The notes below the pieces were generated by a model. It made no database searches and was not told the origin of the DNA. It saw only the letters and a list, made by a program, of their open reading frames with translations. A stretch of 64,000 nt of DNA from an uncultured Oscillospiraceae bacterium. GTDB lineage: Bacteria > Bacillota > Clostridia > Oscillospirales > Oscillospiraceae. Positions 10,293 to 46,809 of this stretch are shown piece by piece (position 1 is the first letter of the stretch; the number at the start of each line of letters is the position of its first letter). Where the stretch lies: assembly GCA_944386975.1 (NCBI GenBank), contig CALXDC010000005.1, positions 12,959-76,958 of the forward strand, written 5' to 3'. The position numbers were made by a program, and so were the translations under genes.

Positions 10293-10335
10293 ACGCCCCC
10301 GGAGGCCGGACCACTGGTCCGGCCTCCGGGGGCGT
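10293..10335. terminator. bidirectional hairpin between convergent genes
   Basis: About 20-bp GC-rich inverted repeat acgcccccggaggccggacc/ggtccggcctccgggggcgt. Confidence 0.6.
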
Positions 10336-10396
10336 CCCTTATGCGTCCGGTTCCGGCAATGGGACTGCTCCGGGCGGTTCCGGGAGCGGCAGAATG

Positions 10397-10974
10397 TTAC
10401 TCCGCCGGGCACTGGCGGCCGGTGTGGTCCATGTAATACTCACAGGTGAGAAGGAGCTGGGAGATGGGTACCACCTCATACCCCTGGCCCAGCATGTACT
10501 CTAAAATACCCGGCAGAGCCTCGGGGGTGTGGAGGGCGGCGTTATGGAAAAGGACAATGGAGCCGTTCTGGATTTTCTCCGTTACCCGCTGCGTGATTTC
10601 GGAAGCGGAGATCTCCTTCCAGTCCAGGCTGTCCACGTCCCACTGGATAGGCTCCATGCCGATGGAGCGGATGGCGGAGATCACGTGGTCGTCATACTCG
10701 CCGTAAGGGCAGCGGATCAGGGTGGGACGCACGCCGGTAACCGCCTCGATCTTGTCGTTGCAGGCCTCCACGTCGGCGGTGATCTCCTCGGCGGAGAGAC
10801 TGTTGAAATGGGCGTGGGTATTGGAGTGATTCATCACCTCGTGGCCGGCCTCATGGAGGGCCAGCACCGATTCCGGATATTTCTCCACCCAATCCCCCAC
10901 CACGAAGAAGGTGGCTTTCACGCCGTAGCAGTCCAGAATGTCGATGAGCTGCTGGGTGTCCTCGTTCCCCCAGG
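10397..10974 (-). pseudogene. polysaccharide deacetylase (NodB family, PdaB-like), 3' segment of a split gene
   Basis: Host-derived translation WGNEDTQQLIDILDCYGVKATFFVVGDW...NHSNTH... has NodB motifs 2 onward but lacks the signal peptide and motif 1. The first 23 residues of the track ORF (MPAGRFFAGV...) are encoded by the element. Confidence 0.85.
10968..10974. repeat. junction core CCCCAGG (left end of the inserted element)
   Basis: The identical 7-mer is found at 19639-19645, exactly where the two deacetylase fragments lose colinearity. Confidence 0.75.
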
Positions 10975-11068
10975 GGAATGCCGGTTTGCGCCATGGGCGT
11001 GTCGGCCCGGGAACGCCGGCAAAAAAGCGCCCCGCAGGCATCTGCCTGCGGGGGGCACATATGGGCGG

Positions 11069-12610
11069 CTATGGGGGAGAATCCTGGATATCGGAGAAGG
11101 CGTAGTGAATCTCCAGACGTCCGTCCTCGTAGACCCGAATCTCCCGGAGAGTCTCCGCCGCTGTGATCCGGTCCAGCTCCGTCAGCCGGCCGTGGCGGAG
11201 AAGGGCGTCTATCCACGGGTGGGAGCGGGGCTCCGCCTGGGCCTCCAGCAGATGCAGCTGGGCCTGGAGAGCCGCCTCCTGCCGGTCATAGTCCTCCCGG
11301 TAGCGCAGATACTCCTCCCGGCGGATGATCCCCTCCCGCTGATCCTCATAGGCGCCCTTCTTCAGCCGGTAGAGGCGGTCCAGGCCCGCCTGCAGCCTCC
11401 GGCGGTCCGCCTGCCGCTCCTGCCGCGGCGCCGTGTCCGCCTCTCGGGCCAGCGCCTCCAGATCCCCGGCCGCGGCAACGACCCGGTTCAGGTCCGCCAG
11501 AACGATCCTCTCCAGCTCAGCGTGAGAGACGGGGTGCCGGGTGCACACCGATGCGCCGTAGCGCTTGTAGGAGCCGCAGACGTAGAACAGGCCGCCGCTC
11601 TGCCGGGTTTTTACCATGGCCCGTCCGCAGTCGCCGCAGCGGAGAAGTCCGGCGAAGGGACCGACAGCTCCAGAGAAGTCCGGCTCCCGGCCCCGGGCAT
11701 TCAGCAGGGCCTGGACCCGGTCCCACTGTTCCCGGCTGATGATGGCCTCGTGGGTGTTTTCCACTACCACCCAATCCTCCCGGGCCTGCTTTTTCGCTTT
11801 ACCGTGGAGGGTGGGGCGGGCGCAGCGCCCCTGCTCCATGCTGCCCAGGTACATCCGGTTTTGCAGGATGCGGTGGATGGTGGCGTAGGTCCAGTAGGTG
11901 GTGCCCTCCAGCCGGCGGCCGTTGTTATACCGCTCTCCAAGGGCACGTTTGTACTGACTGGGGCAGGGGACCCCCTCCTGATTGAGAAGCTTGGCGATGC
12001 GGACCTTTCCCGTGCCGCTTTCAAAGAGAGAGAAGATCTGCCGGACCACCTGGGCCGCCGGCGGATCCACCAGCAGATGACCCCGGCGGTCCGGATCCTT
12101 CCGATAGCCGTAGCTGGGAAAGGCCCCGATGAACTCCCCACGCCGCTGCTTGGCGCGGATGGCCGAGCGGACCTTGTCCGAAATGTCCCGAGCGTATTGG
12201 GTGTTGAAGAGGTTCTTCATGGGCAGCAGGAGGTCGTATTTTCCCCGGCCGCTGTCCACGTGGTCGTTGACGGCGATGAACCGAACGGACAGGGCTGGGA
12301 ACACCCGCTCCAGATACCGGCCCATCTCGATGTAGTCCCTGCCGAACCGGGACAGGTCCTTCACCAGCACGCAATCCACCCGGCCCGCCCGGATGTCCTC
12401 CTCCATGCGGCGGAAGGCGGGGCGGTCGAAGTTGGTGCCGGTGTAGCCGTCGTCCTGATAGAAGTCCACCAGGCGCAGCTCCGGATGGTCCTCCAGGTAC
12501 TGGACCAGAAGCTTGCGCTGGTTGGCGATGCTGTCGCTCTCCGACTTGTCGCCGTCCTCCCGGGACAGACGGAGATACCCGGCAGTGTTCCAGTATTCCG
12601 CGGCAGTTCC
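11069..12610 (-). CDS. large serine recombinase (resolvase domain, recombinase domain, zinc ribbon, coiled coil); start codon unresolved
   Basis: The track ORF (11069-12469) starts at a GTG inside the catalytic domain (VDFYQDDGYTGTNFDRP). The same frame stays open upstream and encodes EYWNTAGYLRLSREDGDKSESDSIANQRKLL with the catalytic Ser, preceded by GGAAAGGAGGGG. There is no ATG, GTG or TTG in between. Confidence 0.85.
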   Translation of the reverse strand, partial: GTAAEYWNTAGYLRLSREDGDKSESDSIANQRKLLVQYLEDHPELRLVDFYQDDGYTGTNFDRPAFRRMEEDIRAGRVDCVLVKDLSRFGRDYIEMGRYLERVFPALSVRFIAVNDHVDSGRGKYDLLLPMKNLFNTQYARDISDKVRSAIRAKQRRGEFIGAFPSYGYRKDPDRRGHLLVDPPAAQVVRQIFSLFESGTGKVRIAKLLNQEGVPCPSQYKRALGERYNNGRRLEGTTYWTYATIHRILQNRMYLGSMEQGRCARPTLHGKAKKQAREDWVVVENTHEAIISREQWDRVQALLNARGREPDFSGAVGPFAGLLRCGDCGRAMVKTRQSGGLFYVCGSYKRYGASVCTRHPVSHAELERIVLADLNRVVAAAGDLEALAREADTAPRQERQADRRRLQAGLDRLYRLKKGAYEDQREGIIRREEYLRYREDYDRQEAALQAQLHLLEAQAEPRSHPWIDALLRHGRLTELDRITAAETLREIRVYEDGRLEIHYAFSDIQDSPP

Positions 12611-12662
12611 CCTCCTTTCCGTGGGAGTTCGGAAGATCAGGTCCGGTGGGCCCGGATCAGTG

Positions 12663-12689
12663 CCCGGAGGAGCTCCTCCGGGGTTTTTT
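12663..12689 (+). terminator. perfect 20-bp palindrome plus T6, terminator-like on the strand antisense to the recombinase
   Basis: cccggaggagctcctccggg followed by gttttttg. Lies about 50 nt upstream of the recombinase RBS. Could instead be an operator. Confidence 0.4.
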
Positions 12690-12869
12690 GACCGGTAAAA
12701 ATGCGGATAATCTGCCGTTTTCGGACCGGCGGGGCCGGGGGGCGCTCCGCTGCAGGCATGGCTGATCCCTCCCCTCTCGGCGTCGCTGCGTGGCTCTTTT
12801 GTCGTCTCCTTCAGTCTATGCGCTGTGGGACAAAAAAAGTCCGCTGGGAAAAATCCATGGAGAGGGGGA

Positions 12870-12905
12870 AAGGGGCGCTGATTTCAACGGAAATCAGCGC
12901 CCCTT
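12870..12905 (-). terminator. hairpin downstream of the LUD/HAD/FGGY operon
   Basis: 16-bp stem aaggggcgctgatttc/gaaatcagcgcccctt. The T-tract on the minus strand is weak. Confidence 0.5.
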
Positions 12906-12952
12906 CCGAGGGATGAGAGGGATTTGTCAAAAGCGTTGCGGCGAAAGCGGTC

Positions 12953-13555
12953 TCAATAGCCCAGATCCTCGTCGATGAGCACCACCTCCATCTCCATGGA
13001 GAGCATGCACTGGGTGAGGATGACCAGCCCTCTGCAGATACGGTCGGGGCTGCTGCAGTCATAGCAGCGGTCCCCCTTGGCGGCACAGGGGGTCTTGCGG
13101 CCGAGCCGCTGGGCGTTCTTGGGCGCCGCGATGTTGCGCGTCCGGTCCAGAGCTCCGGGGAGGTCCGGTGCGATTTTGTTCCGGCCCACCACGAAATAGA
13201 CCTTGCGGTGTCCGAACAGCGAGGCGGATACCCGGTTCCCGATGCCGTCCAGGTTGACGATGGCGCCGGTGTCCTCGGCGACGCCGTTGGCGGAGAGCAG
13301 GTAGACCTCCGCCTGGGCGGCCAAGCGCTGGACCTCCTGGGGGTCACCCGGGGTAAAGCCGTGGCGGTAGAGGGTGTTGTGCCGGCTCAGGCTCTCCCGC
13401 AGCCCAAGCTCCACCAGCGTCATGGAGCCGCCCATCCCCACGGTGACGCCGTCGATCTCCCGGTTGAGGTAGTCGGCGGCCTCGCTGCCGCCGGCAAAGA
13501 CAGAGACGGTGAATCCGTTTCGCTCCAAGGCGCTGCGCAGCTTCTCAAAGGGCAT
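12953..13555 (-). CDS. LUD-domain (LutC/YkgG-like, DUF162) protein
   Basis: 200 aa. The pattern VGMGGSMTLVELGL...YLLSANGVAEDTGAIVNLDGIGNRV matches the lactate-utilisation C family. Confidence 0.65.
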   Translation of the reverse strand: MPFEKLRSALERNGFTVSVFAGGSEAADYLNREIDGVTVGMGGSMTLVELGLRESLSRHNTLYRHGFTPGDPQEVQRLAAQAEVYLLSANGVAEDTGAIVNLDGIGNRVSASLFGHRKVYFVVGRNKIAPDLPGALDRTRNIAAPKNAQRLGRKTPCAAKGDRCYDCSSPDRICRGLVILTQCMLSMEMEVVLIDEDLGY

Positions 13556-14231
13556 GGTGTTCCCTCCTTTCCTTTGCAGGTAAGATGTAGTCGGCCAGGG
13601 CCTCCGCCGTATGGACCACTGCCGCCGCTCCTGCGGCGATCGTCTCCCCCTCCGGGGCGAAGCCGCAGAAATTTACGCCCAGACAGGCGATGCCGCAGGA
13701 GGCTGCCCCCTCTGCGTCATACCGGCGGTCGCCTACCATGAGGACCTGCTCCCGCTGGGCGGGAGAAATGCCGAACCGCTCCATCGCCATTCCAATGACA
13801 GCCGCCTTGGGATTTTCCTCCCGGGCGTGGGTGGTGCCCACCACATGGGTAAAGTAGGACGCCAGCCCCAGGTTCTGCAGCACCTGGCGGCAGGCCTCCG
13901 TCTCCTTGTTGGAGGCCACCGCCAGCTCCAGCCCCGCCTCCCGCAGACGCCGCAGCGTCTGGGGAAGGCCGGGAATGTTGCGGACCATCCGGTTTCCCAC
14001 GATGTGGTAGTAGGTCATATAGAGGGCGGCGGCGCGCTCAGCCTCCTGGTCGGGGAGACCGCAGAGAACGGTGAAGCTCTCTATCAGAGGCGGACCGATG
14101 GCCTTCCTGGCGATCTGCCTTGTCGCCTTCGGCCTGCCCAGCTTCTCCAGGGCGTAATCCATGCAGGCATAGTGCCCCTCGCTGGAGTCGGTGAGCGTCC
14201 CATCCAGATCAAACAGAATATAGCGGTACAT
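13545..14231 (-). CDS. HAD-superfamily phosphatase (phosphoglycolate phosphatase-like)
   Basis: ATG at 14231 with an AGGAGG RBS. MYRYILFDLDGTLTDS is HAD motif I; VGDRRYD is motif IV. The longer track ORF is a spurious extension. Confidence 0.85.
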   Translation of the reverse strand: MYRYILFDLDGTLTDSSEGHYACMDYALEKLGRPKATRQIARKAIGPPLIESFTVLCGLPDQEAERAAALYMTYYHIVGNRMVRNIPGLPQTLRRLREAGLELAVASNKETEACRQVLQNLGLASYFTHVVGTTHAREENPKAAVIGMAMERFGISPAQREQVLMVGDRRYDAEGAASCGIACLGVNFCGFAPEGETIAAGAAAVVHTAEALADYILPAKERREHHAL

Positions 14232-14289
14232 CGGATTCCTCCTGTCGTACGGGTCCTCTCCGGGAGGAACCGCCGCAGCCCGCGGGGCG

Positions 14290-15837
14290 CTACCGGGAGA
14301 CATGCTGCACGGTCTTGTGGACAATCTCGGACATCTGGGGCCAGGTTTCGATGTAGCGGTCCAGGAAGAAGGCGTATGTTTCGTGGTTTTCCATGTTGGG
14401 GGAGAACACACGGTCGAAGCGCACCATGTTGTCCGCCGCCTCCTTCAGATTCTTGTAGGTTCCGGCGGCCACTGCGGCGATCATGGCGTCGCCCAGGCAG
14501 CCGGTGTTCTGGGTGTCGCTGGTGATGCAGATCTCCACGCCGGTGACGTCCGCGTGAATCTGCATCCACAGGTCGGACTGGGCCATACCGCCGCAGGCGT
14601 AGATGCGGCTGACCTTGTAGCCGCCGTCCGCCAGGGCACGCAGGCAGTGGGCGGTGCCGTAGGCCACGCCCTCCAGAATGGCTCTGGCCATGTGGGCGGT
14701 GGTGTGGACCAGGGAGAGGCCCCAGAAGATGCCCCGCGCAAAGGAATCGGCGTAGGGAACCCGGTTGCCCTGGAAGTAATCCACCATCACCAGACCGTCG
14801 CTGCCGATGGGCACGGAGCCCGCCTGCTCGTCCAGATAGTGGTACATGCTGACGCCCTTTGCCTTGGCGTCATCCTGCCACTGCTGGGGAATCAGATTCT
14901 GCTTGAACCAGGCCAGAATGGAGCCGCTGGAGGCCTGACCGCCCTCAATGAGGCTGGTCCCCTCCGTTACGGCATTGGGATAGGCGCCGTTGACGCCGTC
15001 CACGTGGAACTCCACCGGGGAGAGACCCAGCAGCACGGAGGAGGTGCCGCCGATGAGGGCCATATCGCCCGACTCCACCACGCCGGTGCCGATCATGCAG
15101 GTGATGGCGTCGATGCCGCCCTCGGCCACCAGGGTGCCCTCCGCCAGACCGAAGGCCTCCGCCGCCTGGGCGGATACATAGCCCACCACGCCCGCCAGGG
15201 GCACCACGTTCTGGCAGAGCATGTCCGCCAGCTCCTCCACGCCCATCTCCGCCAGGAAGTCCCGCTGCCAGCCCCCGTTGACGTCGTCATAGAGGCCCCG
15301 CACCGTGGCGGCGGATTTGTTGGCGCATTTGACGCCGGTCAGCTGGAAGTTGAGCCAGTCCGTGAACTCCATCACGGTGGCCACCTTGGCCCACACCTCC
15401 GGCTCATTTTCCTTGACCCACATGCTCTTGGGAATGAGACTTTCGGCGGGGACGCCGGAGGGGTAGAAGCGGGTCACATTGTGGTCGCAGCGGAAAATCC
15501 GCTCCGCCTGGGCCGCCGCGCGCACGTCCATCCACAGAATGGGCTTGCGGACGCACCGGTCCTCCCGGTCCAGAAACACCGCGGTGCTGGTGGTGCCGTC
15601 GCAGGCCAGGGCGGCGATCTCCTCCGGGGCGGTTCCGGCGGCCTCAATGGCGCCGGGGATGGCGATTTTCATGGCGGCCAGCCATTCGCTGTCGTCCTGC
15701 TCTGCCCAGCCGCTCTTGGGAAACTCCGTGTTGTATCCTGCCGTCTTGGTGCCGAGGCACCGGCCCGTTTTGTCAAAAATCGAGATCCGGAAGCCGCTGG
15801 TTCCGGCGTCGATTCCCATAAAATACTTCTTCTCCAT
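14290..15837 (-). CDS. FGGY-family carbohydrate kinase
   Basis: 515 aa. MGIDAGTSGFR start and the C-terminal GG...D motifs of the FGGY family. Confidence 0.85.
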   Translation of the reverse strand: MEKKYFMGIDAGTSGFRISIFDKTGRCLGTKTAGYNTEFPKSGWAEQDDSEWLAAMKIAIPGAIEAAGTAPEEIAALACDGTTSTAVFLDREDRCVRKPILWMDVRAAAQAERIFRCDHNVTRFYPSGVPAESLIPKSMWVKENEPEVWAKVATVMEFTDWLNFQLTGVKCANKSAATVRGLYDDVNGGWQRDFLAEMGVEELADMLCQNVVPLAGVVGYVSAQAAEAFGLAEGTLVAEGGIDAITCMIGTGVVESGDMALIGGTSSVLLGLSPVEFHVDGVNGAYPNAVTEGTSLIEGGQASSGSILAWFKQNLIPQQWQDDAKAKGVSMYHYLDEQAGSVPIGSDGLVMVDYFQGNRVPYADSFARGIFWGLSLVHTTAHMARAILEGVAYGTAHCLRALADGGYKVSRIYACGGMAQSDLWMQIHADVTGVEICITSDTQNTGCLGDAMIAAVAAGTYKNLKEAADNMVRFDRVFSPNMENHETYAFFLDRYIETWPQMSEIVHKTVQHVSR

Positions 15838-15924
15838 CGCGTTCTCCTATTCAAGTAGGTGGTTGAGGTGGTTGATGTGACTGGGAAAGCGCTGCCGCGG
15901 TCTGCAGTGGTAGGGAGGACGGCG

Positions 15925-16101
15925 TCAGGTGTTCACCACGGAGCCGCCGTTGATGGGTATCACCTGGCCGGTGACGTAGCTGGCGTCGTCGGAGAGCAGG
16001 AAGGCAATGACGTTGGCAATCTCGCTGGGCTCGCCGAACCGCTTCATGGGAATGTACTGTATTTTTGACGGGGTGTCAAGGCGGGCGGAGCCTATGTTCC
16101 C
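15925..16101 (-). pseudogene. 3' remnant of a short-chain dehydrogenase/reductase gene
   Basis: Only the last ~58 codons remain: ...IPMKRFGEPSEIANVIAFLLSDDASYVTGQVIPINGGSVVNT*. The frame is closed by a stop near 16104, and there is no room for the N-terminal ~190 aa. Confidence 0.75.
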
Positions 16102-16248
16102 GCTTCAGAGAAAATAAAAAAGCCGCTGCAGAAAGAGAAGCTCTGCGGCGGATGTCAGAGTATTTGCAGCGGCAGCCAGGCCGCCCCGTGCAACAAGACA
16201 ATTGATTTTACGGAGAAAATAGTCTAATATTTTTCTATTGAACCGGGG

Positions 16249-17172
16249 ATGGACGAAGATGGTCCAGCCTGTTGGAAAGAGAATGGATGGAAGAGAAAGG
16301 TCAGGACGATTCCTATGAGGAAGGAAAAAAAGCGCAGGAGAGCAGGCAAGGCCGCCCGGTGGAGGGGAATCAAAGGGTCGGTGATGATTTTCGCGGTGTT
16401 CTGTCTGGTGACAGTTATCTCCACCATATTATATGAGGTGCTTCCGCTGCCGAAAATCCCCTTCCTATGGGGAGAGGACGCCTTTTACCAGACCATTGTA
16501 ATGGGGATGTACAACAGCCTTCTGGACTTTGCCGTTTTTAGTATTTTATTGACCGTCCTACTGAAGCGGCAGGAGAGGGCGGACACGGTGCAGCGGTACC
16601 TGGATGATCTGGATGCGTGCAGATTCTGGTTCAGCGATCAGGCGGCCCACAGGCTGCGATCTCTGATTCAGCTGCTTCAGGATGAGGGGGAGTATTCCCT
16701 TGATCTGACCAAATGCTATATATCGGAGATCATCTTGAAAAAACTCCGATATGAAAAGTGCAGAATGATGGGCGCGGTCTTCAGCGGCTCAAACTTAGAG
16801 CAGTCCACATTTGTTGCATGCAATTTCCAAGGGGCGTATTGTGAAAAAAGCCTTCTCAGGAAATGTACGTTTCAGGCGTGCAGTCTCCGGCTTTTGAAGG
16901 GCAGGGAGGTGGACATGAGAAGCAGTTCTCTCCAGGACTGTGACCTGGAATTGTGTGATTTCACCGATGCGGATCTGCGCTTTGCCATAATAAAAAATTG
17001 CAGCCTGAAGAAAGTCACTTTCTCGGGCTGCAATCTGGAGCGGACCAATTTGCTGGGTTGTACCAATCTCTGTGTTGAAGAGCTGGTGAAGTGCAGATCT
17101 CTGCGGTATGCAAAGCTGGATCCGGAAATTCGTGCCGCCGTACAGGCGGCTGCGCCTCACCTGCTGAACTGA
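16249..17172 (+). CDS. membrane-anchored pentapeptide-repeat protein
   Basis: Two TM helices, then pentapeptide repeats (FSGSNLEQSTFVACNFQGAYCEKSLLRKCTFQACSL...). Visibly lower GC than its flanks. The start may be the ATG at 16315. Confidence 0.7.
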   Translation: MDEDGPACWKENGWKRKVRTIPMRKEKKRRRAGKAARWRGIKGSVMIFAVFCLVTVISTILYEVLPLPKIPFLWGEDAFYQTIVMGMYNSLLDFAVFSILLTVLLKRQERADTVQRYLDDLDACRFWFSDQAAHRLRSLIQLLQDEGEYSLDLTKCYISEIILKKLRYEKCRMMGAVFSGSNLEQSTFVACNFQGAYCEKSLLRKCTFQACSLRLLKGREVDMRSSSLQDCDLELCDFTDADLRFAIIKNCSLKKVTFSGCNLERTNLLGCTNLCVEELVKCRSLRYAKLDPEIRAAVQAAAPHLLN

Positions 17173-17181
17173 CGTGTATTT

Positions 17182-17228
17182 CCCCCTGGACCAACGGTAC
17201 AAGAGACTTGTGCAGTTGGTCCAGGGGG
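17182..17228. terminator. long hairpin between the convergent pentapeptide gene and the RR/HK operon
   Basis: 14-bp arms ccccctggaccaac/gttggtccaggggg, with an inner stem acaag/cttgt. Confidence 0.6.
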
Positions 17229-17281
17229 GAATCGAACCCGCCGATGGCGCCGAAGCGCCATGCCAACCATGGCACTGGACT
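17218..17281 (-). other. tRNA-like cloverleaf fragment with no anticodon loop
   Basis: The minus strand carries GGTTCGATTCC (T-loop consensus) in a T-arm-like stem, a 6-bp acceptor-like pairing GTCCAG/CTGGAC, and two tetraloop hairpins (TGCCA-TGGT-TGGCA and TGGCGC-TTCG-GCGCCA). No 7-nt anticodon loop and no CCA end. Confidence 0.3.
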
Positions 17282-17411
17282 GCCTTTATTATATCGCGAA
17301 AAAGAAAAACCGCAACCATAAAATGGAGGTTCCCGTGAAATTTTCGCCTGCGGGGCCTCTATAGCAGCGCCGTCCCGGTCTGGGACGGCGCTTTTTGGAA
17401 GCGGCAGCGAT

Positions 17412-18017
17412 TCACGGTTTGGATGGTTCTGTGATTTCCGGAAAGTAGGCGGCGAACACATGGCGCAGCTGCTGTTTGCTGACAAGCCCCAGCTTGCGCA
17501 GCACGCTGGTTTGCTGGTTGGCGATGGTCTTGGAGGAGGAGTGGAGGGCCACAGGCATTCCCAGCATGTGTTGAAAAACCGCCAATTCCGCCGAGGTCAG
17601 GCGCTGCAAAAGGGCCGAGCAAATCAGGTGCGATTGGGGCGTGACCCCCCGTGCGGTTTCCAGAATGGTGGGCACCAGGAGGGAAAATTGGCTTTTCATC
17701 ACGTAGGCGGAGGCGAAGGCCTCCATGCTGGCCTGGATCACTGTGGCAGGGGCGTCATAGGAGGTCAGGAGAATCACCTTGGCCTGGGACTCCAGACGGA
17801 TTCGGCGGGCCGCAGGTACGCCCGCCATGGGACCTTCAGTCAGCGCCAGATCCATCAGCACCACGTCCGGCCTCTCTCGGACGGCAGCCCGGAGGGCCGG
17901 TTCCCCCTCTGAAAAAATGCCTGTCAATGTCAACTCCTTTTGGGCAGCTAAAGTCTGCTGGATCAAATACTGAAAATCGGGATCATCCTCCACCACCATG
18001 ATACGGGTCAATTCCAT
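17412..18017 (-). CDS. response regulator, NarL/LuxR family (REC plus HTH)
   Basis: 201 aa. IMVVEDDPDF...VVLMDLAL receiver motifs and a C-terminal LuxR-type HTH (LTSAELAVFQHMLGM...IANQQTSVLRKLG). Overlaps the kinase stop codon. Confidence 0.85.
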   Translation of the reverse strand: MELTRIMVVEDDPDFQYLIQQTLAAQKELTLTGIFSEGEPALRAAVRERPDVVLMDLALTEGPMAGVPAARRIRLESQAKVILLTSYDAPATVIQASMEAFASAYVMKSQFSLLVPTILETARGVTPQSHLICSALLQRLTSAELAVFQHMLGMPVALHSSSKTIANQQTSVLRKLGLVSKQQLRHVFAAYFPEITEPSKP

Positions 18018-19459
18018 GCCACGTTCTCCTTTCTGGGTATCTGACGTTTGATGGGGAACTGCAGGGAAAAGACGCTGCCTGTGCCAGGCGAGGAGGAAAC
18101 CTCTATGCGGCCGCCGTGGGCAATCATGACATTCCAGCAGTAGTAGAGCCCCAGACCCAAGTTTTGTTCCCCGTTCTTGGTAGTATAGTAGGGCTCAAAG
18201 ATGTGCTTGACCATCCCTGCATCCATGCCGCAGCCATTGTCGGACACGGTGAGGGTAGCGCAGCGCCTGTGGGGGGCGGTCCGGTAGGCGAGCGTCACCC
18301 GGCCGTCCTTTCCGGCGGCCTCCAGGGCATTGGCAATCAGATTGCGCAGCGCTTCCTCCACATGGGCCTCGTCACACGGTAGCGGCTCGTTGTCGCAAAA
18401 AGAGACCGTTACGGCGGCTCCTGCTCCGGGGGCGCCGTTGAACTCCTCTGCCAGATTCCGCAGAAGCGTTCCTACGTCGCAAGGTGCCGGAGTCAGGTCG
18501 ATTTTCTGAGAATAGAGCTGGGTGCGGCTGATAAACTGCTTCAGGTGGGCTGCCGAGCGGCGGAGAATCTCCACCTCCCGGGCGGGAGCTCCCTGGGCGG
18601 CCAAAAACTCGGTGCACCACTCAATTTTGGCCAGGTCATTTTTCAGGGCATGGCCCACATATTGGGCATTTTTCTCCAGCACCAGACCACCGCTGCTCCA
18701 ATCATAGGTCTCCCGCCGGAAGCGGATGCCCCAGATTCCCTCTCGGAAGGCATGATAGAGGAAGTAGATCAGGACGAACAGGACCACGATGAGGTTGAAC
18801 TGCCACAGCTTGCTGAGATTGGGAATTCCAAGGGCATGGTAGGGGAAGGCGGAAACCAGCCAGAACCACAACGGCGCCAGGAGGCTGGCCGCAGCCAGGC
18901 GGCGCTGGCGGGAATTGGCGCTCAGTCGCTCTTCCATCAGAACGTGAAGGAGAATCCCTGTTCCGATGAGACCGTAGCACCAGTTGTATAGTCCTATTGC
19001 CAGACAGAAGGCGGGGTCTCTTTGGAGTGCAAGCGTCTGGGTGCAGGGAAAGATCAGCGCCAGCAGCAGGCTGGGCAGATATACCAGCGTCCGCATGCGG
19101 CGGAACAGACGGGGGCGGGTCTGATCCATCCGATGAAAGTACAGGCAGAAGACCACCACCGCCGGCATGGAGAGGTAATAGAATGCGGCGCTGAGCAGGG
19201 AGTAGAGGAGCTCTGAAAAGGCGGGCGACCAGAGTCCCCGGCGGATCAATGCCGGTCCCAGAGTGTAAAACAGATACTCCTTCAGCGTGCCGACGCTGAA
19301 CATTATACCACTGCCAAAGCACCAGAGATTCAGCGGATTTCTGGGGTTGGAGACCAGAATGAGGGTGAAGACGGTCCAGATCAAAAAGGTGAATAGCAGC
19401 ATCAGTTCCCCGGGGAACCCGTCCATTACAACATTGATTTCTGTCAAAACGCGGCCCAT
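18008..19459 (-). CDS. sensor histidine kinase with a polytopic N-terminal membrane domain
   Basis: ATG at 19459 after AAGGGGGG. About six TM helices, then an HATPase_c region (DNGCGM...GLGLYYC). Confidence 0.8.
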   Translation of the reverse strand: MGRVLTEINVVMDGFPGELMLLFTFLIWTVFTLILVSNPRNPLNLWCFGSGIMFSVGTLKEYLFYTLGPALIRRGLWSPAFSELLYSLLSAAFYYLSMPAVVVFCLYFHRMDQTRPRLFRRMRTLVYLPSLLLALIFPCTQTLALQRDPAFCLAIGLYNWCYGLIGTGILLHVLMEERLSANSRQRRLAAASLLAPLWFWLVSAFPYHALGIPNLSKLWQFNLIVVLFVLIYFLYHAFREGIWGIRFRRETYDWSSGGLVLEKNAQYVGHALKNDLAKIEWCTEFLAAQGAPAREVEILRRSAAHLKQFISRTQLYSQKIDLTPAPCDVGTLLRNLAEEFNGAPGAGAAVTVSFCDNEPLPCDEAHVEEALRNLIANALEAAGKDGRVTLAYRTAPHRRCATLTVSDNGCGMDAGMVKHIFEPYYTTKNGEQNLGLGLYYCWNVMIAHGGRIEVSSSPGTGSVFSLQFPIKRQIPRKENVAWN

Positions 19460-19628
19460 GGGATCCCCCCTTGCGATACAGGTAAAAGCATTATAACACA
19501 AAGAGCGGAACATTTTCAAATAGAAAGAAATCTAATAGAGGACAGGAGGAGCTTCCTTTCCCGGTTCGGCTGCAGGGAGGGACGGCCCGGAATGGGGCCG
19601 CGGCAGGGTCTCGGCTCCCGGGGCGCAT

Positions 19629-19826
19629 TTACACATCACCCCAGGCGGCGTCGAAAGAAATAGAGACCATTTTCTGATCCCGCTCCACGCAGTAGATGGG
19701 CAGCTGACGGGTGGCGGCGGAGGTCATCACCGCGCTGGGAAAATTGACCACCGCCGCCATAGCCGCCACTGCGGCCACTGCGGCAGCGGCGGCCAGAATG
19801 CGGCGTTTGATGAAAAACAGTTTCAT
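19629..19826 (-). pseudogene. polysaccharide deacetylase (PdaB-like), 5' segment of the split gene
   Basis: MKLFFIKRRILAAAAAVAAVAAMAAVV (signal/TM) ...KMVSISFDAAWG, then two junction-encoded residues (DV) and a stop. AAAAGGAGG RBS. FDAAWG is NodB motif 1 in the PdaB-like form. Confidence 0.85.
19639..19645. repeat. junction core CCCCAGG (right end of the inserted element)
   Basis: Identical to 10968-10974. Confidence 0.75.
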
Positions 19827-19854: not shown

Positions 19855-19882
19855 AGTCTATGCCCGGGACGTGTCCTGTTAT
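19855..19882 (-). promoter_or_regulatory. candidate mother-cell (sigma-E-like) promoter of the deacetylase gene
   Basis: The minus strand reads ATA, 17 nt, CATAGACT, against the Bacillus sigma-E consensus ATA, 16-18 nt, CATACAnT. It lies 28 nt upstream of the ATG. Motif matched by eye only. Confidence 0.35.
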
Positions 19883-19991
19883 GTTGTTTCTGTGTCCCCG
19901 TGACCTACTGGACAACCATCGTGAAATCTGCTACACTGCAGATACCATACCCCTACCGTGTTCCCGGTGCCGGGAGAAAGGAAGCAAACAG

Positions 19992-34857: not shown

Positions 34858-34933
34858 GCTGGAATAGCTCAGTCGGTAGAGCAGCTGATTCGTAATCAGC
34901 AGGTCGCGTGTTCGAGTCACGTTTCCAGCTCCA
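34858..34933 (+). tRNA. tRNA-Thr (anticodon CGT)
   Basis: Folded by hand: acceptor GCTGGAA/TTCCAGC, D arm GCTC/GAGC, anticodon stem GCTGA/TCAGC with loop TTCGTAA, T arm GCGTG-TTCGAGT-CACGT, encoded CCA. Confidence 0.92.
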
Positions 34934-39888: not shown

Positions 39889-40815
39889 GTGGCCGGTGCC
39901 TACAGGATCTATATGGATGGCCGGGACGAGTGCCTGGGGTGGGAGGACCATCTCCTGCGGGAGCGGCAGGGGTCCTTCCTTCTGGCGTTTCTGGACCAGG
40001 ACTGGGAGGCGCTGGCCGATCAGGCCCAGGCGCTGCGGCGGCAGGCCTTCCACCTGGAGCAAATGTACGCGGGTTACCGCCGCTTGCGGGAAGAGTTTCA
40101 GGAGGCCCATCCCCTCTTCCGCCAGGAGCTGGACCGGATGGCGGACAGCGCCGACAGCCTTTATGCCGCCGGACAGTGGGCGGGGGAGATGGGACGCTTT
40201 CGCCGCCTGATGGCAGCGGCAGTGGAGCGGGTGCTGGACCGGGATACCGGGGCCGGCGGAGCCGGCGGCCGGTACCGCCAGCTGTTGGAGGAGGTCAGCG
40301 AGCTGTCCCGGCTGGCAGACCGTCTCCACGAGGGAGTGGGCGTTCAGTACGCCTTCGACAGCGGCCAGGGCCAGCTGTGCCTCACCGCCAGGGACCTTCG
40401 GGCACTGCTCTTTTTGTCCTTTGAATACCTGGTGTCCCAGGGGTACGCGCTGGGCCGCTGCCTCAACTGCGGGCGGTACTTTGTGCCCTTTTCGGTGAAC
40501 ACCTGTTACTGTGACCGGCCTGTGGGAGAAGGCCGAATCTGCAAGACCGCAGCGGCCAAGGTAAACTATACGAAAAAACTCCGGCAGGATCAGGCCCGGA
40601 GTCTCTACGCCAAGCAGAACAACACCTACCAGATGCGGGTCCGCCGGTCTCCGGAGCGGTATCCCGAGGAGGAGTACCGTCTCTGGCGGCAGCAGGCCAA
40701 AGAGCTGCTGGCCGCCACGGAGCGGGGCGAGCTGAGCTGGGAGGAATTTCAGCGCAAGATGGAGCTGCCCCGGCGGCGGGGCGGAGAAGAGAGGGATGTA
40801 TGGAACGGCAAGTGA
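39889..40815 (+). CDS. hypothetical Cys-rich protein, first gene of the BMC operon
   Basis: GTG start after GAGAGGAAGAGGGAA. Zinc-ribbon-like CLNCGRYFVPFSVNTCYCDRPVGEGRIC. Overlaps the ADH start by 16 nt. Confidence 0.55.
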   Translation: MAGAYRIYMDGRDECLGWEDHLLRERQGSFLLAFLDQDWEALADQAQALRRQAFHLEQMYAGYRRLREEFQEAHPLFRQELDRMADSADSLYAAGQWAGEMGRFRRLMAAAVERVLDRDTGAGGAGGRYRQLLEEVSELSRLADRLHEGVGVQYAFDSGQGQLCLTARDLRALLFLSFEYLVSQGYALGRCLNCGRYFVPFSVNTCYCDRPVGEGRICKTAAAKVNYTKKLRQDQARSLYAKQNNTYQMRVRRSPERYPEEEYRLWRQQAKELLAATERGELSWEEFQRKMELPRRRGGEERDVWNGK

Positions 40816-42014
40816 TCGAGCTGATGCAGCCCCGGCACACCCTCATCGGGGAGGGAAGCATTCGGGAGATTCCCCGGTATCTCCGGCGGCTTCAGGAGAA
40901 TATGAAGGCCCTGGTGGTGACGGACAAGGGCCTCGTGAAGATCGGAACCGCTCAAAAGGTCACCGGTGAACTGGACCGGGCGGGGGTGCGCTGGTGCCTC
41001 TATGACGGGGTGGAGCCAAACCCCACCGTGTCCATTGTGAACGAGGCCATGGACTGCTATCGCCGGGAGGGCTGCGGCTGCATCATTGCCATCGGCGGCG
41101 GTTCTCCCATTGACGTGGCCAAGGCGGTGAGCATCCTGGCAGAAAACGGCGGCAGGATCCAGGACTATCACGGGGTGAACAAGTCCCGGCGGCCCGGGGC
41201 CCCCATCGTGGCGGTGAACACCACTGCGGGTACCGGCAGCGAGGTGACCTGCGTTTATGTGATCACCGACGAAAAAGAAAATGTGAAAATGGTGATGATG
41301 GACCCCAACTGTCTGGCCTATCTGGCCATCGACGATCCCAGCCTTATGGTGGGGATGCCCCCGGCTCTGACGGCGGCCACCGGTATGGACGCTCTCACCC
41401 ACGCGGTGGAGTGCTACGTTTGCCGGGAGGCCACTCCCTATACCGACGGGCTGGCCCTGGAGGCCATCCGTCTGGTGGGCACGGCCCTGCGCCGGGCGGT
41501 GCGGGACGGCGGGGACATGAAGGCCCGGACAGACATGTGCTGGGCGGAGTATCTGGCGGGGCTGGCCTTCTCCAACGCAGGCCTCGGCCTTGGTCACAGC
41601 ATTGCCCACCAGCTGGGAGCCCAATACCACACCCCCCACGGGGAGGCCTGCGCCCAGATTCTGCCCCGGGTGATGGAGTATAACGCCCCCGCCTGCCTCG
41701 GGCGGATGGGGGATATTGCCAAGGCTTTGGGGGCGGATCTCCAGGGGCTCACGGAGGAGGAGGCCGCCCATCTGGCGGCGGACTGTGTCCGGGACCTCTG
41801 CGACGATATCGGCATCCGTCCCCTCCACGCCTGCGGCTTCTCCATGGATGATATCGGTCTTCTCTCCCGGCATGCCATGGAGGACACCTGTGTACCTTCC
41901 AACCCCGTGACTCCCACGGAGGAGGAAGTGGGCCGTATTCTGGCCAAAGCCTACTGTGAGGGGCTGGTGGTGGAGGCTATCCGCCAGCGCGCTGCGGGAA
42001 AGGAGAACCCATGA
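40800..42014 (+). CDS. iron-containing alcohol dehydrogenase (PduQ/EutG-like)
   Basis: 404 aa. GGGSPIDVAKA, TTAGTGSEVT, and the His cluster HAVECY...GHSIAHQLG...HGEA. Confidence 0.88.
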   Translation: MERQVIELMQPRHTLIGEGSIREIPRYLRRLQENMKALVVTDKGLVKIGTAQKVTGELDRAGVRWCLYDGVEPNPTVSIVNEAMDCYRREGCGCIIAIGGGSPIDVAKAVSILAENGGRIQDYHGVNKSRRPGAPIVAVNTTAGTGSEVTCVYVITDEKENVKMVMMDPNCLAYLAIDDPSLMVGMPPALTAATGMDALTHAVECYVCREATPYTDGLALEAIRLVGTALRRAVRDGGDMKARTDMCWAEYLAGLAFSNAGLGLGHSIAHQLGAQYHTPHGEACAQILPRVMEYNAPACLGRMGDIAKALGADLQGLTEEEAAHLAADCVRDLCDDIGIRPLHACGFSMDDIGLLSRHAMEDTCVPSNPVTPTEEEVGRILAKAYCEGLVVEAIRQRAAGKENP

Positions 42015-42658
42015 GCGGCAATAAGATCATCATTCAAGACCGGCAGCAGCAGCAGATCACCACCTATGTGATCTATCGGGAGACGGGACGGATTTTCGTT
42101 CCTGCCGCCGCCTCCAACCGCCATGTCCATCTCACCACGGCAACCCTGGAGCGGCTCTTCGGCCCCGGCTACCAGCTGACTCCCATCAAGGATCTCTCCC
42201 AGCCCGGCCAGTACGCCGCCGCAGAGACAGTGACGGTGGCGGGACCCAAGGGGGAGCTGAAGAAGGTCCGGGTGCTGGGGCCGGTGCGGAAGGAAGATCA
42301 GGTGGAGATCTCCCGTACCGATTCCTTCCAGCTGGGGGTGAAGCCGGTGGTGCGGATGTCCGGCGATGTGGCCGGAACCCCGGGGTGCCGGCTCATCGGC
42401 CCGGTGGGGGAGGCGGAGCTTCCCCAGGGGGTTATCGTGGCTGCGCGGCATCTCCATCTCTCGAAGGAGCAGTGTGAGACCTATGGCCTTCACGACGGGG
42501 AAGTGATCGCCCTGCGCAGCGCCGGGGAGCGGTCCGCTGTGCTGGAGAATGTGGTGGTCCGGTCTGGGCCGGGCCACGACATGGAGGTCCATTTAGATAC
42601 CGACGAGGCCAACGCCATGGCCATGCCCAACGGCGAGATGCTGGAGGTTATCCGATAG
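42011..42658 (+). CDS. pduL: phosphate acyltransferase PduL
   Basis: 215 aa. Two PduL repeats with SNRHVHLT and ARHLHLS. ATGA overlap with the ADH gene. Confidence 0.85.
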   Translation: MSGNKIIIQDRQQQQITTYVIYRETGRIFVPAAASNRHVHLTTATLERLFGPGYQLTPIKDLSQPGQYAAAETVTVAGPKGELKKVRVLGPVRKEDQVEISRTDSFQLGVKPVVRMSGDVAGTPGCRLIGPVGEAELPQGVIVAARHLHLSKEQCETYGLHDGEVIALRSAGERSAVLENVVVRSGPGHDMEVHLDTDEANAMAMPNGEMLEVIR

Positions 42659-42673
42659 AATAGGACGAGTGCA

Positions 42674-43309
42674 ATGGACAGAGAACAGCTGCACAAGTTG
42701 ATCGAAGAGGTCACCGGCGAGGTGGAGGCCCGTCTGGCCCGGAAAAACGGCAGCAAACCCCAGGGAAAACGGGTGCTGCTGCTGGCGGGGCCTCCGGCCT
42801 TCCCTCAGGACCTGGAGGCCTGCCTTCTCTCCCGGGGCGGCGGGTGGACCACGGCAGATCTCAGCGCCGAGAACGCTCCGGACCGGAATACCCTCCAGGA
42901 GCTGGTGAGCCGGGCGGAGGAGGTGGCCCTGGCCGCGCCCCCCATTGCCCTTCTGCGGGAAATTGCCGACGGGGAGGATGGTTCGGACCTGGCTTATCTG
43001 ATGATCCGGGCCATTTTGTGGGGAAAGCGGACCGCGCTTCTCCTGGACTTTGACCCGCCCCGGTTCCGGCGCAACAGCCTTCTCGGCCAGGTGGCCGAGG
43101 CGGTGGAGGCTCTTCAGTCCATGGAGGTGGAGGTGGTGAACTACCGCCGCAGCCGTCCTCGGACGGAGCCTTTGGAGTTGGTGACGGAGGAGGCGGTGCG
43201 CCGGGCGGCCAAGAGTCGGGAACGGACCCTTCGCTGCGCCGTGAACGCCATCATCACCCCCTCCGCCCGGGACGCCATCCGGGAACTGGGGGTGGAGATC
43301 CAATATTAA
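42674..43309 (+). CDS. BMC-associated protein, PduM-like (tentative)
   Basis: 211 aa. N-terminal amphipathic helix DREQLHKLIEEVTGEVEARL. The C-terminus LVTEEAVRRAAKSRERTLRCAVNAIITPSARDAIRELGVEI resembles the PduM C-terminus as I remember it. Sits between pduL and a pduN-like gene. Confidence 0.45.
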   Translation: MDREQLHKLIEEVTGEVEARLARKNGSKPQGKRVLLLAGPPAFPQDLEACLLSRGGGWTTADLSAENAPDRNTLQELVSRAEEVALAAPPIALLREIADGEDGSDLAYLMIRAILWGKRTALLLDFDPPRFRRNSLLGQVAEAVEALQSMEVEVVNYRRSRPRTEPLELVTEEAVRRAAKSRERTLRCAVNAIITPSARDAIRELGVEIQY

Positions 43310-43321
43310 AGGAGTGACGCT

Positions 43322-43639
43322 ATGCAGTTGGCGAGAGTAAAGGGGACGGTGGTGAGCACCAACAAGGCGGAGACCCTGCTGGGGATGAAACTTTTGCTGG
43401 TGAAGCCCATCGATATCGAGACCTGGGAGGAGAAGGGCGACGTGCTGGTAGCCATTGACGCCGTGGGCGCCGGAGAGGGCGAGGTGGTGATGGTGGTCAG
43501 CGGCAGCTCCTCCCGTCAGACGGAAGTCACCGTCAACCGCCCCACAGACCTCACCATCGCCGCCATTGTGGATACGGTGGACGTGGGAGGACGCCGGGTC
43601 TTTGAGAAGTTTGTGAAGGAGGCCGGGGAGACCCGGTAA
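43322..43639 (+). CDS. BMC vertex pentamer (BMC-P, EutN/PduN/CcmL family), paralog 1
   Basis: MQLARVKGTVVSTNK... is the typical EutN-fold N-terminus. 105 aa. Confidence 0.85.
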   Translation: MQLARVKGTVVSTNKAETLLGMKLLLVKPIDIETWEEKGDVLVAIDAVGAGEGEVVMVVSGSSSRQTEVTVNRPTDLTIAAIVDTVDVGGRRVFEKFVKEAGETR

Positions 43640-43673
43640 GGCATTGCAGGCAGAAAGCCGAGGTGGCACGAGA

Positions 43674-44987
43674 ATGGACCTGAAGGAACTGGTAAAGAAC
43701 GCGGGGATCTTGGGTGCGGGCGGCGCGGGCTTCCCCACCCATGTGAAGATCAGCTGTCAGGCGGAGGTGGTCATCGTCAACGGGGCCGAGTGCGAGCCCC
43801 TGCTGCGGGTGGACCAGCAGATAATGGAGTTGTACGCCCGGGAAGTGGTGGAAGGCCTCCGGCTGGTGGTGGAGCACACCGGCGCCAAAGAAGGGGTTAT
43901 CGCTCTGAAGGCACACTACAAAGGGGCGGTGGCGGCGCTTACGGAGGTTGTCCAGGGAATGGGCAACATCCGGCTGCACCTCCTTCGGGCCTACTATCCC
44001 GCCGGAGATGAGCAGCAGATCGTCTATGAGGTTACCGGAAAGGTGGTGCCAACCGGGGGATTGCCGTTAGACGTAGGGGCGGTGGTGTGCAACGCCAGTA
44101 CGCTTCTCAACGTGGCTCGGGCCGCCGAGGGAAAGAAAGTGGTGGAGAAGTACGTTACCATAGGCGGCGCGGTAGGCCAGCCCAAGACGGTGAAGGTGCC
44201 GGTGGGCATGTCCTGCAGGGAGCTTCTGGAGGCCGCCGGCGGGGTGACGGAGCCCTGTCGGTATCTCATGGGCGGGCCCTGTATGGGCCGGGTGTTAAAG
44301 GACCTGGATGAGCCGGTGACCAAGACCACCGGGGGCCTTCTGGCCATTCCGGAGGACCACCCCTACTGGCAGCTTCGGGAGGAGAAGCTGAACCTGCAGC
44401 GCATCCAGGCGGTGTGCTGCCAGTGCTCCATGTGCACTCAGATGTGTCCCCGCAACGCATTGGGCCTCAATGTCCAGCCTCACAAGGCCATGCGGACCAT
44501 TGCCCAGGGGGTGGACCTTCTGGGGGATGTGAACGGTATCTTCTCCTGCTGCAACTGCGGTTTGTGTACTTACTACGCCTGTAACTTCGGTCTCCATCCT
44601 TCTCAGGTGATGCAGCAGCTGAAGGGGGCGCTCATGGCCAAGGGGGTACGCCCCCGGAAGGAGGTGTTTACCTCTGCAGACCGGGGCCTGGAGAACAAGA
44701 AAGTGCCGGTGAAGCGGCTTGTAGCGCGGTTGGGACTGACGGACTACGACGTGGCCGCCCCCCTGGAGGACCGGCTCCTCCAGACGGACCGGGTACGGAT
44801 TTTGCTCCGCATGGGTGTGGGAGCCCCCAGCGTGCCGGTGGTCTCTGTGGGAGACAAGGTGCGGAAGAACACACTGGTGGCCGATATTGCTCCGGATAAA
44901 TTGGGGGTCAAGATGCACGCCAGCATCTCCGGCACGGTGACCGCCGTGACGGATGGGTATATTGAGATAAGGAAGGCGACGGTATGA
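43674..44987 (+). CDS. pduS: PduS-like Fe-S flavoprotein (RnfC/NuoF-like with SLBB domain and two 4Fe-4S motifs)
   Basis: ATG at 43674 after GAGGTGG. GAGGAGFPTHVK. Cys clusters CQCSMCTQMCP and CNCGLCTYYAC. Confidence 0.8.
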   Translation: MDLKELVKNAGILGAGGAGFPTHVKISCQAEVVIVNGAECEPLLRVDQQIMELYAREVVEGLRLVVEHTGAKEGVIALKAHYKGAVAALTEVVQGMGNIRLHLLRAYYPAGDEQQIVYEVTGKVVPTGGLPLDVGAVVCNASTLLNVARAAEGKKVVEKYVTIGGAVGQPKTVKVPVGMSCRELLEAAGGVTEPCRYLMGGPCMGRVLKDLDEPVTKTTGGLLAIPEDHPYWQLREEKLNLQRIQAVCCQCSMCTQMCPRNALGLNVQPHKAMRTIAQGVDLLGDVNGIFSCCNCGLCTYYACNFGLHPSQVMQQLKGALMAKGVRPRKEVFTSADRGLENKKVPVKRLVARLGLTDYDVAAPLEDRLLQTDRVRILLRMGVGAPSVPVVSVGDKVRKNTLVADIAPDKLGVKMHASISGTVTAVTDGYIEIRKATV

Positions 44988-45529: not shown

Positions 45530-45608
45530 GTCAGGTTTCTGCCCGGGGAACTTCCCTGGAGAACATACAACGAATACGATTTGAGACGATCATCAGGAGG
45601 ATACGACT

Positions 45609-45884
45609 ATGAAATTAGCGCTGGGTATGGTGGAGACCAGAGGACTCATCGGCGCCATTGAGGCGGCAGACGCCATGGTGAAGGCGGCCAATGTGAAGCT
45701 CATCGGCAAGGAGCAGATCGGCTCCGGTCTGGTGACGGTGATGGTCCGCGGGGACGTGGGTGCGGTGAAGGCCGCTGTGGAGGCCGGTTCCTCCGCCGCC
45801 AAGGCGGTGGGCGAGCTCTACGGCGTCCATGTGATCCCCTCTCCCCACGACGACGTGGAGGCCATCCTGCCGAACATCGGCTGA
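45609..45884 (+). CDS. BMC hexamer shell protein (BMC-H, PduA/EutM-like), copy 1
   Basis: [57 protein letters not shown] is the canonical BMC-H sequence. Confidence 0.93.
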
Positions 45885-45889
45885 GTCCC

Positions 45890-46168: not shown

Positions 46169-46180
46169 GGAGAAACAGGT

Positions 46181-46459: not shown

Positions 46460-46463
46460 TTCC

Positions 46464-46751: not shown

Positions 46752-46809
46752 AAAGCAAGACCGTCCCGCCGGACAATAATGTGCCGGCGGGACGGCGAAG
46801 CATACCCAA

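Follow-up and report, generated by a model that had tools for sequence, protein, structure and literature searches.

A PdaB-like deacetylase gene split by a serine recombinase island in Oscillospiraceae: a candidate skin-type intervening element

Skin elements interrupt sigK, a mother-cell gene, within its coding sequence in B. subtilis, C. difficile and other species; the associated recombinase is SpoIVCA. The spoIVCA gene is sigmaE-dependent and has a mother-cell promoter. A split of this kind is found in a 64,000-nucleotide stretch of DNA from an uncultured Oscillospiraceae bacterium (GenBank assembly GCA_944386975.1, contig CALXDC010000005.1, positions 12,959 to 76,958 of the forward strand; this whole stretch is referred to here as the window). 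An 8.7-kb insert at window positions 10975-19638, carrying a large serine recombinase (LSR) gene, divides a PdaB-like NodB deacetylase gene into two fragments, and in-silico excision restores the open reading frame (ORF). This much is fully supported. As set out below, the element is probably cut out during spore formation, like the skin of Bacillus.

Several described systems share features with this locus. Fifteen surveyed skin elements range from 2.6 to 48 kb and share only the recombinase between species, and skin-like elements also occur in cotJC and spoIIID (10.1101/2022.02.25.481979). In skin, as in the window element, the recombinase gene is located at one end, immediately before the C-terminal fragment, and nothing else is conserved (10.1101/2022.02.25.481979). 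Unlike in skin, the target here is a cortex-type deacetylase rather than a sigma factor, the host belongs to the Oscillospiraceae and the cargo does not consist of prophage remnants; in addition, excision of the window element is a candidate event, read from the sequence. The gin element, found in gerE of Bacillus cereus ATCC 10987 and excised in sporulation, is likewise a non-prophage element with a serine recombinase (GirC) and a small accessory factor (GirX) (PMC5595907). Whereas gin has three recombinase genes and is known from one species group, the elements described here have a single LSR and a 35-47-aa ORF and occur in many species at one conserved codon. SPbeta, in spsM, pairs the LSR SprA with a small recombination directionality factor (RDF), SprB, and a sporulation-specific promoter of this small factor leads to excision in the mother cell (PMC4191935, PMC5499854). 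SPbeta is an active prophage whose sprA is expressed apart from sprB, whereas the window element has no phage genes of that kind and its two genes appear to form one operon with a single promoter-like site in front. Elements of the same kind in other sporulation genes are yin (yabG), vfbin (spoVFB), vrin (spoVR) and those of cotJC and spoIIID (PMC10747680, PMC4191935, 10.1101/2022.02.25.481979), which differ in target gene and host taxon. Outside sporulation genes, Tn4451/Tn4453 encode TnpX, a clostridial LSR whose excision product is a circular intermediate and which is the closest solved catalytic-domain homolog of the window LSR. Genes for mobilisation (tnpZ) and resistance are part of Tn4451, which inserts at many GA-centred sites, whereas the present clade is found only at one pdaB codon and has no mobilisation gene. 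Among the 8 million papers searched there is no report of pdaB or any other NodB deacetylase as a target, nor of such elements in Oscillospiraceae; an initial reading of the letters of the window (the sequence-only reading) had likewise known of no pdaB-type target.

The split gene and its recombination module comprise the following features, given by window position.

10397-10974, minus strand: pdaB 3' fragment (2 nt, codons 62-252 and stop), with the remaining NodB motifs
10968-10974: attR core, CCCCAGG on the plus strand; the dyad centre of the reconstructed attP is the TG of CC-TG-GGG
10975-10992, minus strand: P arm of the att site, GGCGCAAACCGGCATTCC
11030-11053, minus strand: intrinsic terminator (10-bp stem with 9 GC pairs, T-run) between the LSR stop and attR
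11069-12607, minus strand: LSR gene, 512 codons and stop, catalytic motif YLRLSRED
12637-12759, minus strand: conserved small ORF of 40 aa, ...RKRQIIRIFTGQKTPEELLRALIRAHRT, a candidate accessory or directionality factor
12811-12842, minus strand: GGACTTTTTTTGTCCCACAGCG-CATAGACT, the promoter-like site of the small-ORF/LSR operon, located 51 nt before the small ORF
19622-19638, minus strand: P' arm of the att site, TGATGTGTAAATGCGCC, an inverted copy of the P arm that is kept in the attL of Flavonifractor hominis (TGATGATAGAAAGCGG)
19629-19826, minus strand: pdaB 5' fragment, an ORF of 65 aa, with codons 1-60 and 1 nt (19646-19826) from pdaB and a DV-stop tail from the element
19639-19645: attL core, CCCCAGG on the plus strand and CCTGGGG on the gene strand
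19855-19884, minus strand: promoter-like site of pdaB, ACATAAC-N15-CATAGACT, of mother-cell sigmaE/K type, 28 nt upstream of the ATG

The 5' ORF starts with MKLFF and encodes a signal peptide and ...KMVSISFDAAWG before it runs into the DV-stop; its last residues ahead of this tail are ...QKMVSISFDAAWG. The minus strand from 10974 downward encodes ...PWGNEDTQQLIDIL... and reaches a stop at 10397. When 19646-19826 is joined to 10397-10974 across the common 7-mer, the result is 759 nt with an open 252-aa frame (...FDAAWGNEDTQQ...), and the break point falls at codon 61/62 in NodB motif 1 (FDAAW/GNED, with the slash marking the break). The joined protein has the conserved domain PF01522 (Polysacc_deac_1; E-value: 3.8e-36). 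Its best NCBIfam match is PdaB (TIGR02764; positions 1-191 of 191 in one stretch, 200.5 bits), ahead of YlxY and PdaA. Among solved structures, the nearest is that of a "putative polysaccharide deacetylase" (6hm9, 6hpa), which has the same xDxAWGNE motif. Intact homologs of 252-253 aa, found among 5.8 billion protein clusters, align to the joined protein with 90-93% identity and 100% coverage and are gapless across the join. The sequence-only reading had proposed that the two fragments fit together exactly, that CCCCAGG stands at both junctions, that deletion between these repeats gives a 252-aa ORF and that the LSR gene ends 95 bp from one junction (stop at 11069, core at 10974); every coordinate is borne out. 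The colinear alignment to intact homologs that it had called for was obtained. The score of the PdaB match lies below the curated cut-off of TIGR02764 (237.4 bits).

The exact 65-aa product of the 5' fragment is carried by 34 contigs from independent samples, and five other contigs encode an identical (100%) 3' fragment product. An assembly artefact or chimera was rejected, as identical junctions are present in at least 34 contigs, in independent samples and in isolate genomes. Since the exact 5' fragment is this common and the exact repaired protein is missing from 15 billion public proteins, the island appears to be fixed in the germline of the window species. Two single-residue variants of the 65-aa fragment exist (P0244, P0245). 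A second 5'-fragment type of 71 aa (P0242, ...FDAAWGDARLRQPA; 27 contigs) belongs to another split species, and its 90% cluster is shared with intact genes.

The empty site is provided by the intact gene of a sister species (PdaB identity 91-92%), which has the upstream neighbours of pdaB in common with the window (sulfatase, MatE, MarR, two ABC genes, DUF4358 and SLH-GDSL). Its attB reads TTCGAyGCCGCCTGGGGCAACGAGGATACC. The window attL equals attB as far as ...GCCGCCTGGGG and then diverges into TGATGTGTAAATGCGCC, and attR consists of GGCGCAAACCGGCATTCC followed by CCTGGGGGAACGAGGA. The 7-bp core is common to attL and attR and has imperfect inverted repeats on either side. The reconstructed attP forms the dyad GCGCA-N5-6-CATyMCCC-TG-GGGTGATG-N-TGCGC, and its best centre of symmetry is the core TG in both the window and F. 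hominis (14/25 and 13/25 positions matching, respectively). The joins predicted on excision are attB (...GACGCCGCCTGGGGGAACGAGGA...; TTTCTTTCGACGCCGCCTGGGGGAACGAGGACACCCAGCAG) and attP (GGCGCAAACCGGCATTCCCCTGGGGTGATGTGTAAATGCGCC). The P arm has the form G[CG]CGCA-N5-6-CAT[CT][AC]CC in seven lineages, with looser forms in L210/L211 (ATCACC) and L212 (CATTACC). A degenerate attP 18-mer sought in assemblies gave 4 viral and 95 metagenome matches, all compatible with chance except that in L177 (Ga0316604_10005152). There, a near-perfect attP-type palindrome (GCCGCAATATGACATCACCCTGGGGTGATGTCATCATACGGCGG, 1164-1181) lies 135 nt past the last ~50 codons of an LSR, the 5' part of which has been replaced by insertion sequence-like transposase fragments; this palindrome may mark an unintegrated or re-circularised relative. 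Past the pdaB stop codon (window 10300-10396, with L016 and L033 for comparison), each species has a gene order of its own, and the upstream order is kept; pdaB thus lies at a break in synteny. An extra rearrangement, suggested by downstream synteny unlike that of the sister species, was rejected, as the flanks diverge after the stop in all of these species, a divergence unrelated to the element.

The distribution of the split was determined by scanning one genome per GTDB species and by looking up homologs of the LSR. The same gene is broken at the same base in eight lineages besides the window (L033, L089, L092, L099, L101-103, L106, L210/211 and L212). L033 is a sister metagenome-assembled genome. 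L089 is the cultured isolate Flavonifractor hominis CLA-AP-H34, whose 3.7-kb element encodes a DUF5104 protein, an MtnA-like isomerase, the small ORF and the LSR. The elements of L101-103 (LSR cluster 801 members) carry histidine-utilisation genes, and the L106 LSR is shared with a Pseudoflavonifractor gallinarum protein. All family members with an LSR in range have one that is 61-80% identical to the window LSR, together with a small ORF. Cargo (unrelated between elements), element size, LSR orientation and the distance from LSR to attR vary across the family; the element-side arm is conserved. The family is widespread: when LSRs are clustered at 90% identity, the 120 best clusters all share at least 61% identity with the query. 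Every clade LSR with a readable neighbourhood is linked to a pdaB fragment except those of L104, L105, L208 and L209, in which there is no pdaB fragment within 10 kb of the LSR. L089, L210/211 and L212 were considered as intact or duplicated genes on the basis of tblastn matches starting at residues 34-43; on reading, they have the same split, and the extra matched residues are a chance similarity of the translated P arm. These elements constitute a previously undescribed family of pdaB-intervening elements, present in at least nine lineages of Flavonifractor/Pseudoflavonifractor-type Oscillospiraceae.

The window LSR has the conserved domains PF00239 (Resolvase), PF07508 (Recombinase) and PF13408 (Zn_ribbon_recom), with a Y-x-R-x-S motif near the N-terminus. 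Among solved structures it is nearer to TnpX (catalytic domain, 2mhc; E-value: 3.2e-26) than to SprA (9dxh; E-value: 6e-15). A phage or plasmid origin was rejected: there are no phage or plasmid relatives above 46% identity, and the best are at 44-46% in IMG/VR, 39% among GenBank phages and 39% among plasmids. The codon at the LSR start position (12607-12605) is ACT, located 4 nt past a strong AAGGAGG, a position at which four relatives start with ATG or TTG. Initiation at the first GTG (12469) would yield an LSR without the active site. No slippery site for a frameshift from the small ORF into the LSR was found when the sequence was read by eye. Within the species, LSR polymorphisms are 10 synonymous and 6 non-synonymous (P=0.002), which argues that the gene is still constrained despite the ACT. 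This codon could reflect either non-canonical initiation or a very recent loss, and the chances that this particular copy is still active appear evenly balanced. Two alternative LSR models were rejected: a 591-aa model (L002, L003) is an artefact of a GTG created by a single-nucleotide polymorphism inside the promoter region, and a 466-aa model starting at GTG is without the catalytic serine. Public gene calls at this locus are misleading in that they include both of these models and a 220-aa "deacetylase" that starts inside the element (L002, L003 8215; P0047, P0121).

A homolog of the small ORF (35-47 aa) is located directly upstream of the LSR in 9/9 LSR contexts read. Neither Pfam nor PHROG has a family that matches it. 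Comparable pairs of recombinase and small factor are SprA/SprB, GirC/GirX and CD1231/CD1234, and the product of the small ORF is a candidate RDF.

The promoter-like sites of pdaB and of the small-ORF/LSR operon resemble each other closely. The strict promoter pattern has 2 matches in the window (0.19 expected), and the 10-mer GCATAGACTG has only two copies in the 64 kb, one in each of these two sites (0.03 expected). The upstream regions of pdaB orthologs from many species have the consensus CATnA-N14-gCATAGnaTG ~30-50 nt before the ATG, and CATAnnnT is present in 51/61 of them. The CATA-type -10 box is common to sigmaE and sigmaK, and many copies also have an ATA-type -35. In C. difficile, an ATA-type -35 distinguishes sigmaE, and three polysaccharide deacetylases are sigmaE-controlled (PMC3789822). 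The 200 nt upstream of the small ORF were scanned with a position weight matrix whose training set consisted solely of 68 regions upstream of pdaB, with empirical p-values taken against random 200-nt windows of the same loci. In 6/6 operons a site scores 10.5-21.2 bits at 26-51 nt from the small-ORF ATG (empirical p 0.0015-0.01 each); that of the window scores 15.1 bits (empirical p 0.004). Three more operons gave 17.6 bits (L208), 9.8 bits (L210, GCATATT-N15-CATACAAT) and no score (L212, -0.8), the last of which keeps a CATAGAAT box. No sigma70-like site was found in 10300-13000, a region that includes the DNA upstream of the operon. The only other strict motif, ACATATT-N14-CATAAGTT, is located 63 nt upstream of a gene for an SSB-family paralog (PF00436; 31883-32607, minus strand). 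The C. difficile ssb gene CD3235 is sigmaE-controlled (PMC3789822).

The fragments of the split gene are under purifying selection. At dS ~1, dN/dS is 0.04-0.20 among split copies versus 0.06-0.24 among intact copies. In the window species, all 4 polymorphisms of the 3' fragment are synonymous (P=0.002), and the 3' fragments of split genes are all open to the normal stop except in L212, where the fragment is truncated, and L106, where it runs off the contig. LSR and PdaB distances are correlated (Mantel r=0.77, p=0.0014) with matching clades, and dS of the LSR is similar to that of the host gene.

The remainder of the element consists of cargo. In gene orientation, the order is kinase, regulator, pentapeptide-repeat gene, SDR remnant, FGGY, HAD, LUD, 40-aa ORF, LSR, terminator and attR.

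18008-19459, minus strand: membrane histidine kinase (HATPase_c)
17412-18017, minus strand: response regulator (receiver domain)
16315-17172, plus strand: pentapeptide-repeat protein, in divergent orientation, within a 49-54% GC patch
16051-16054: internal deletion junction (blastn versus ERZ16268138 scaffold_178)
15925-16047, minus strand: truncated SDR remnant of 40 aa (called with PF13561 in L013 and L014; coordinates mapped through the alignment)
14290-15837, minus strand: FGGY-family sugar kinase
13545-14231, minus strand: HAD-family phosphatase (228 aa as called in relatives)
12953-13555, minus strand: LUD-domain protein

Contigs of the same species have the element in two forms, of 8.7 kb and 17.3 kb. 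The longer form has an extra 8,633 bp at window position ~16051-16054, encoding an ABC transporter, a GntR-type regulator, a RuBisCO-like protein, an SDR, a second FGGY kinase, a DUF7973 protein, an AP_endonuc_2 protein and most of a second SDR. Because the truncated SDR remnant remains in the window, the window form is a deletion derivative of the 17.3-kb form. Pfam and PHROG scans identified no phage structural, packaging or lysis genes, and the sole named phage function is the integrase family phrog_95. Neither the ORFs of the window element nor those of the F. hominis element (3.7 kb) include relaxase, mobilisation or conjugation genes, and Rfam and sigma70 scans gave no match inside the window element. 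Window 10975-19638 is a non-phage, non-conjugative genomic island, and the Pfam domains agree with the sequence-only reading, which had described its cargo as metabolic and signalling genes rather than phage genes. The GC content dips to 49-54% at 15800-17300, over the pentapeptide-repeat gene, versus ~62% elsewhere; the best PHROG match of this gene is phrog_12514, a family of unknown function. The low-GC patch may be a separately acquired piece within the island.

Elsewhere in the window, a run of short ORFs at ~40800-47600 has N-termini that, by eye, resemble bacterial microcompartment shell or associated proteins, and a tRNA gene at 34858-34930 is the only Rfam match.

The proposed model for the element is as follows. 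The island would have been inserted by the LSR into codon 61/62 of the PdaB-like gene, which would encode a sporulation deacetylase. During vegetative growth and in the forespore it would remain there, keeping pdaB interrupted and silent. A sigmaE/K-type promoter like that of pdaB would, in the mother cell, transcribe the genes for the 40-aa protein, a candidate directionality factor, and for the LSR, which would be made from its ACT codon. The LSR would then recombine attL with attR at the CC-TG-GGG core, releasing the island as a circle and rebuilding the 252-aa pdaB behind its own promoter. Excision would thus be specific to sporulation and to the mother cell. Because the mother cell lyses, the germline would keep the island and its vegetative cargo.

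For the family as a whole, sporulation-linked excision of this skin type is judged fairly likely. The sequence-only reading had put the element forward as a candidate of this type, and as a candidate it is supported by an LSR clade found at one codon, the shared promoter motif, purifying selection and non-phage cargo. The gene for a small acid-soluble spore protein (SASP) that it had noted in the window is present as an alpha/beta-type SASP gene (50159-50353, minus strand; PF00269, E-value: 7.6e-30). A number of points weigh against sporulation-linked excision. Flavonifractor plautii is listed as non-spore-forming (10.1101/2022.02.25.481979), and sporulation of Flavonifractor-type bacteria is disputed. 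The sigmaE/K assignment of the promoters is based on likeness to a consensus, and the joined protein scores below the TIGR02764 cut-off, as given above. Species with a split gene are intermixed with species that have an intact one, at 91-93% identity, and therefore precise germline losses or repeated gains are required; transfer between close relatives could also produce the co-divergence signal. No entry among 15 billion public proteins is the exact repaired protein. The LSR start position is ACT in 6/6 contigs of the species, none of which has an ATG, GTG or TTG between the Shine-Dalgarno sequence and the catalytic Ser codon. Finally, in L212 (LSR 61% identical) the 3' fragment at 11708-12124 is truncated after WDVD (~residue 175) and followed by unrelated genes; L212 is a decayed example, and a split copy can thus decay.

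Several of these points would fit a locked relic in the window species, in which the start codon has been lost, the island is immobile and pdaB is permanently split and decaying or replaced by a paralog, with the family perhaps still excision-competent elsewhere. The ACT codon in place of ATG or TTG, the fixed split without an intact allele, the 8.6-kb internal deletion that the element has already suffered and the decay of L212 all favour this explanation, which is nevertheless considered unlikely. Purifying selection acts within the species on both the LSR and the 3' fragment, and the 512-codon LSR frame, strong Shine-Dalgarno sequence, small ORF and promoter box are all intact. Moreover, one event per cell would need little recombinase, so that weak non-canonical initiation could suffice. 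The sequence-only reading had held that a split carried by related strains as a fixed pseudogene would tell against a developmental element; the split does appear fixed in the species, but under such selection its fragments do not resemble a decaying pseudogene.

LSR elements generally target conserved coding motifs, and the island could instead be an ordinary integrative one that finds its attB in a conserved part of pdaB and inactivates a dispensable gene, with no developmental excision. Many islands have metabolic and signalling cargo of this sort, the closest solved relative of the LSR is the TnpX of the mobilisable Tn4451, and sporulation of the host is unproven. This explanation is improbable in view of the lack of mobilisation, conjugation and phage genes among those sought and of any phage or plasmid LSR relative above 46% identity. 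In addition, the sporulation-type promoter of the target gene is also present at 8/9 recombinase operons scanned, split genes are constrained like intact ones, and the LSR and host gene co-diverge. TnpX-type LSRs are capable of both excision and insertion without an RDF. A TnpX-like LSR could therefore act as a reversible switch that excises and reinserts in growing cells and generates heterogeneity in the deacetylase, with no link to sporulation, and the C. botulinum yin element has been found excised at all growth phases (PMC10747680). Such a switch is very improbable here: there is no sigma70-like promoter upstream of the operon, no assembly of the species has the empty site, and the promoter type points to the mother cell. 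Returning to sporulation-linked excision, a stronger version can be offered only tentatively. The split would be an ancient, vertically inherited and domesticated rearrangement of abundant gut Oscillospiraceae, in which a sigmaE-driven mini-RDF of 35-47 aa and the LSR remove a germline-only island of vegetative metabolic genes from the terminally differentiating mother cell and unlock a cortex deacetylase. Obligatory co-transcription of the RDF would make the system an excision-only host device rather than a mobile element, and the non-canonical start would keep the recombinase at a minimal level.

With this locus, the known skin-type elements would gain a new target and a new host family, along with a plausible new small accessory protein. 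If excision is confirmed, pdaB would join sigK, spoVFB, spoVR, spsM, gerE, yabG, cotJC and spoIIID as an excision-gated sporulation gene, and would be the first cortex or cell-wall enzyme among the targets. The split gene also explains pdaB "pseudogene" calls and the spurious 220-aa and 591-aa gene models in annotations, and the family provides a case of long-term co-divergence of host and element with freely exchanged cargo. The compact set of LSR, att sites and candidate RDF may be of use in recombinase work, and excision is a possible marker of an active mother-cell programme. The family is directly testable, since its carriers include cultured bacteria, namely F. hominis and an isolate of P. 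gallinarum type. The Oscillospiraceae are dominant, poorly characterised commensals of the human and animal gut whose ability to sporulate is debated, and a confirmed element would be the first such system in this family.

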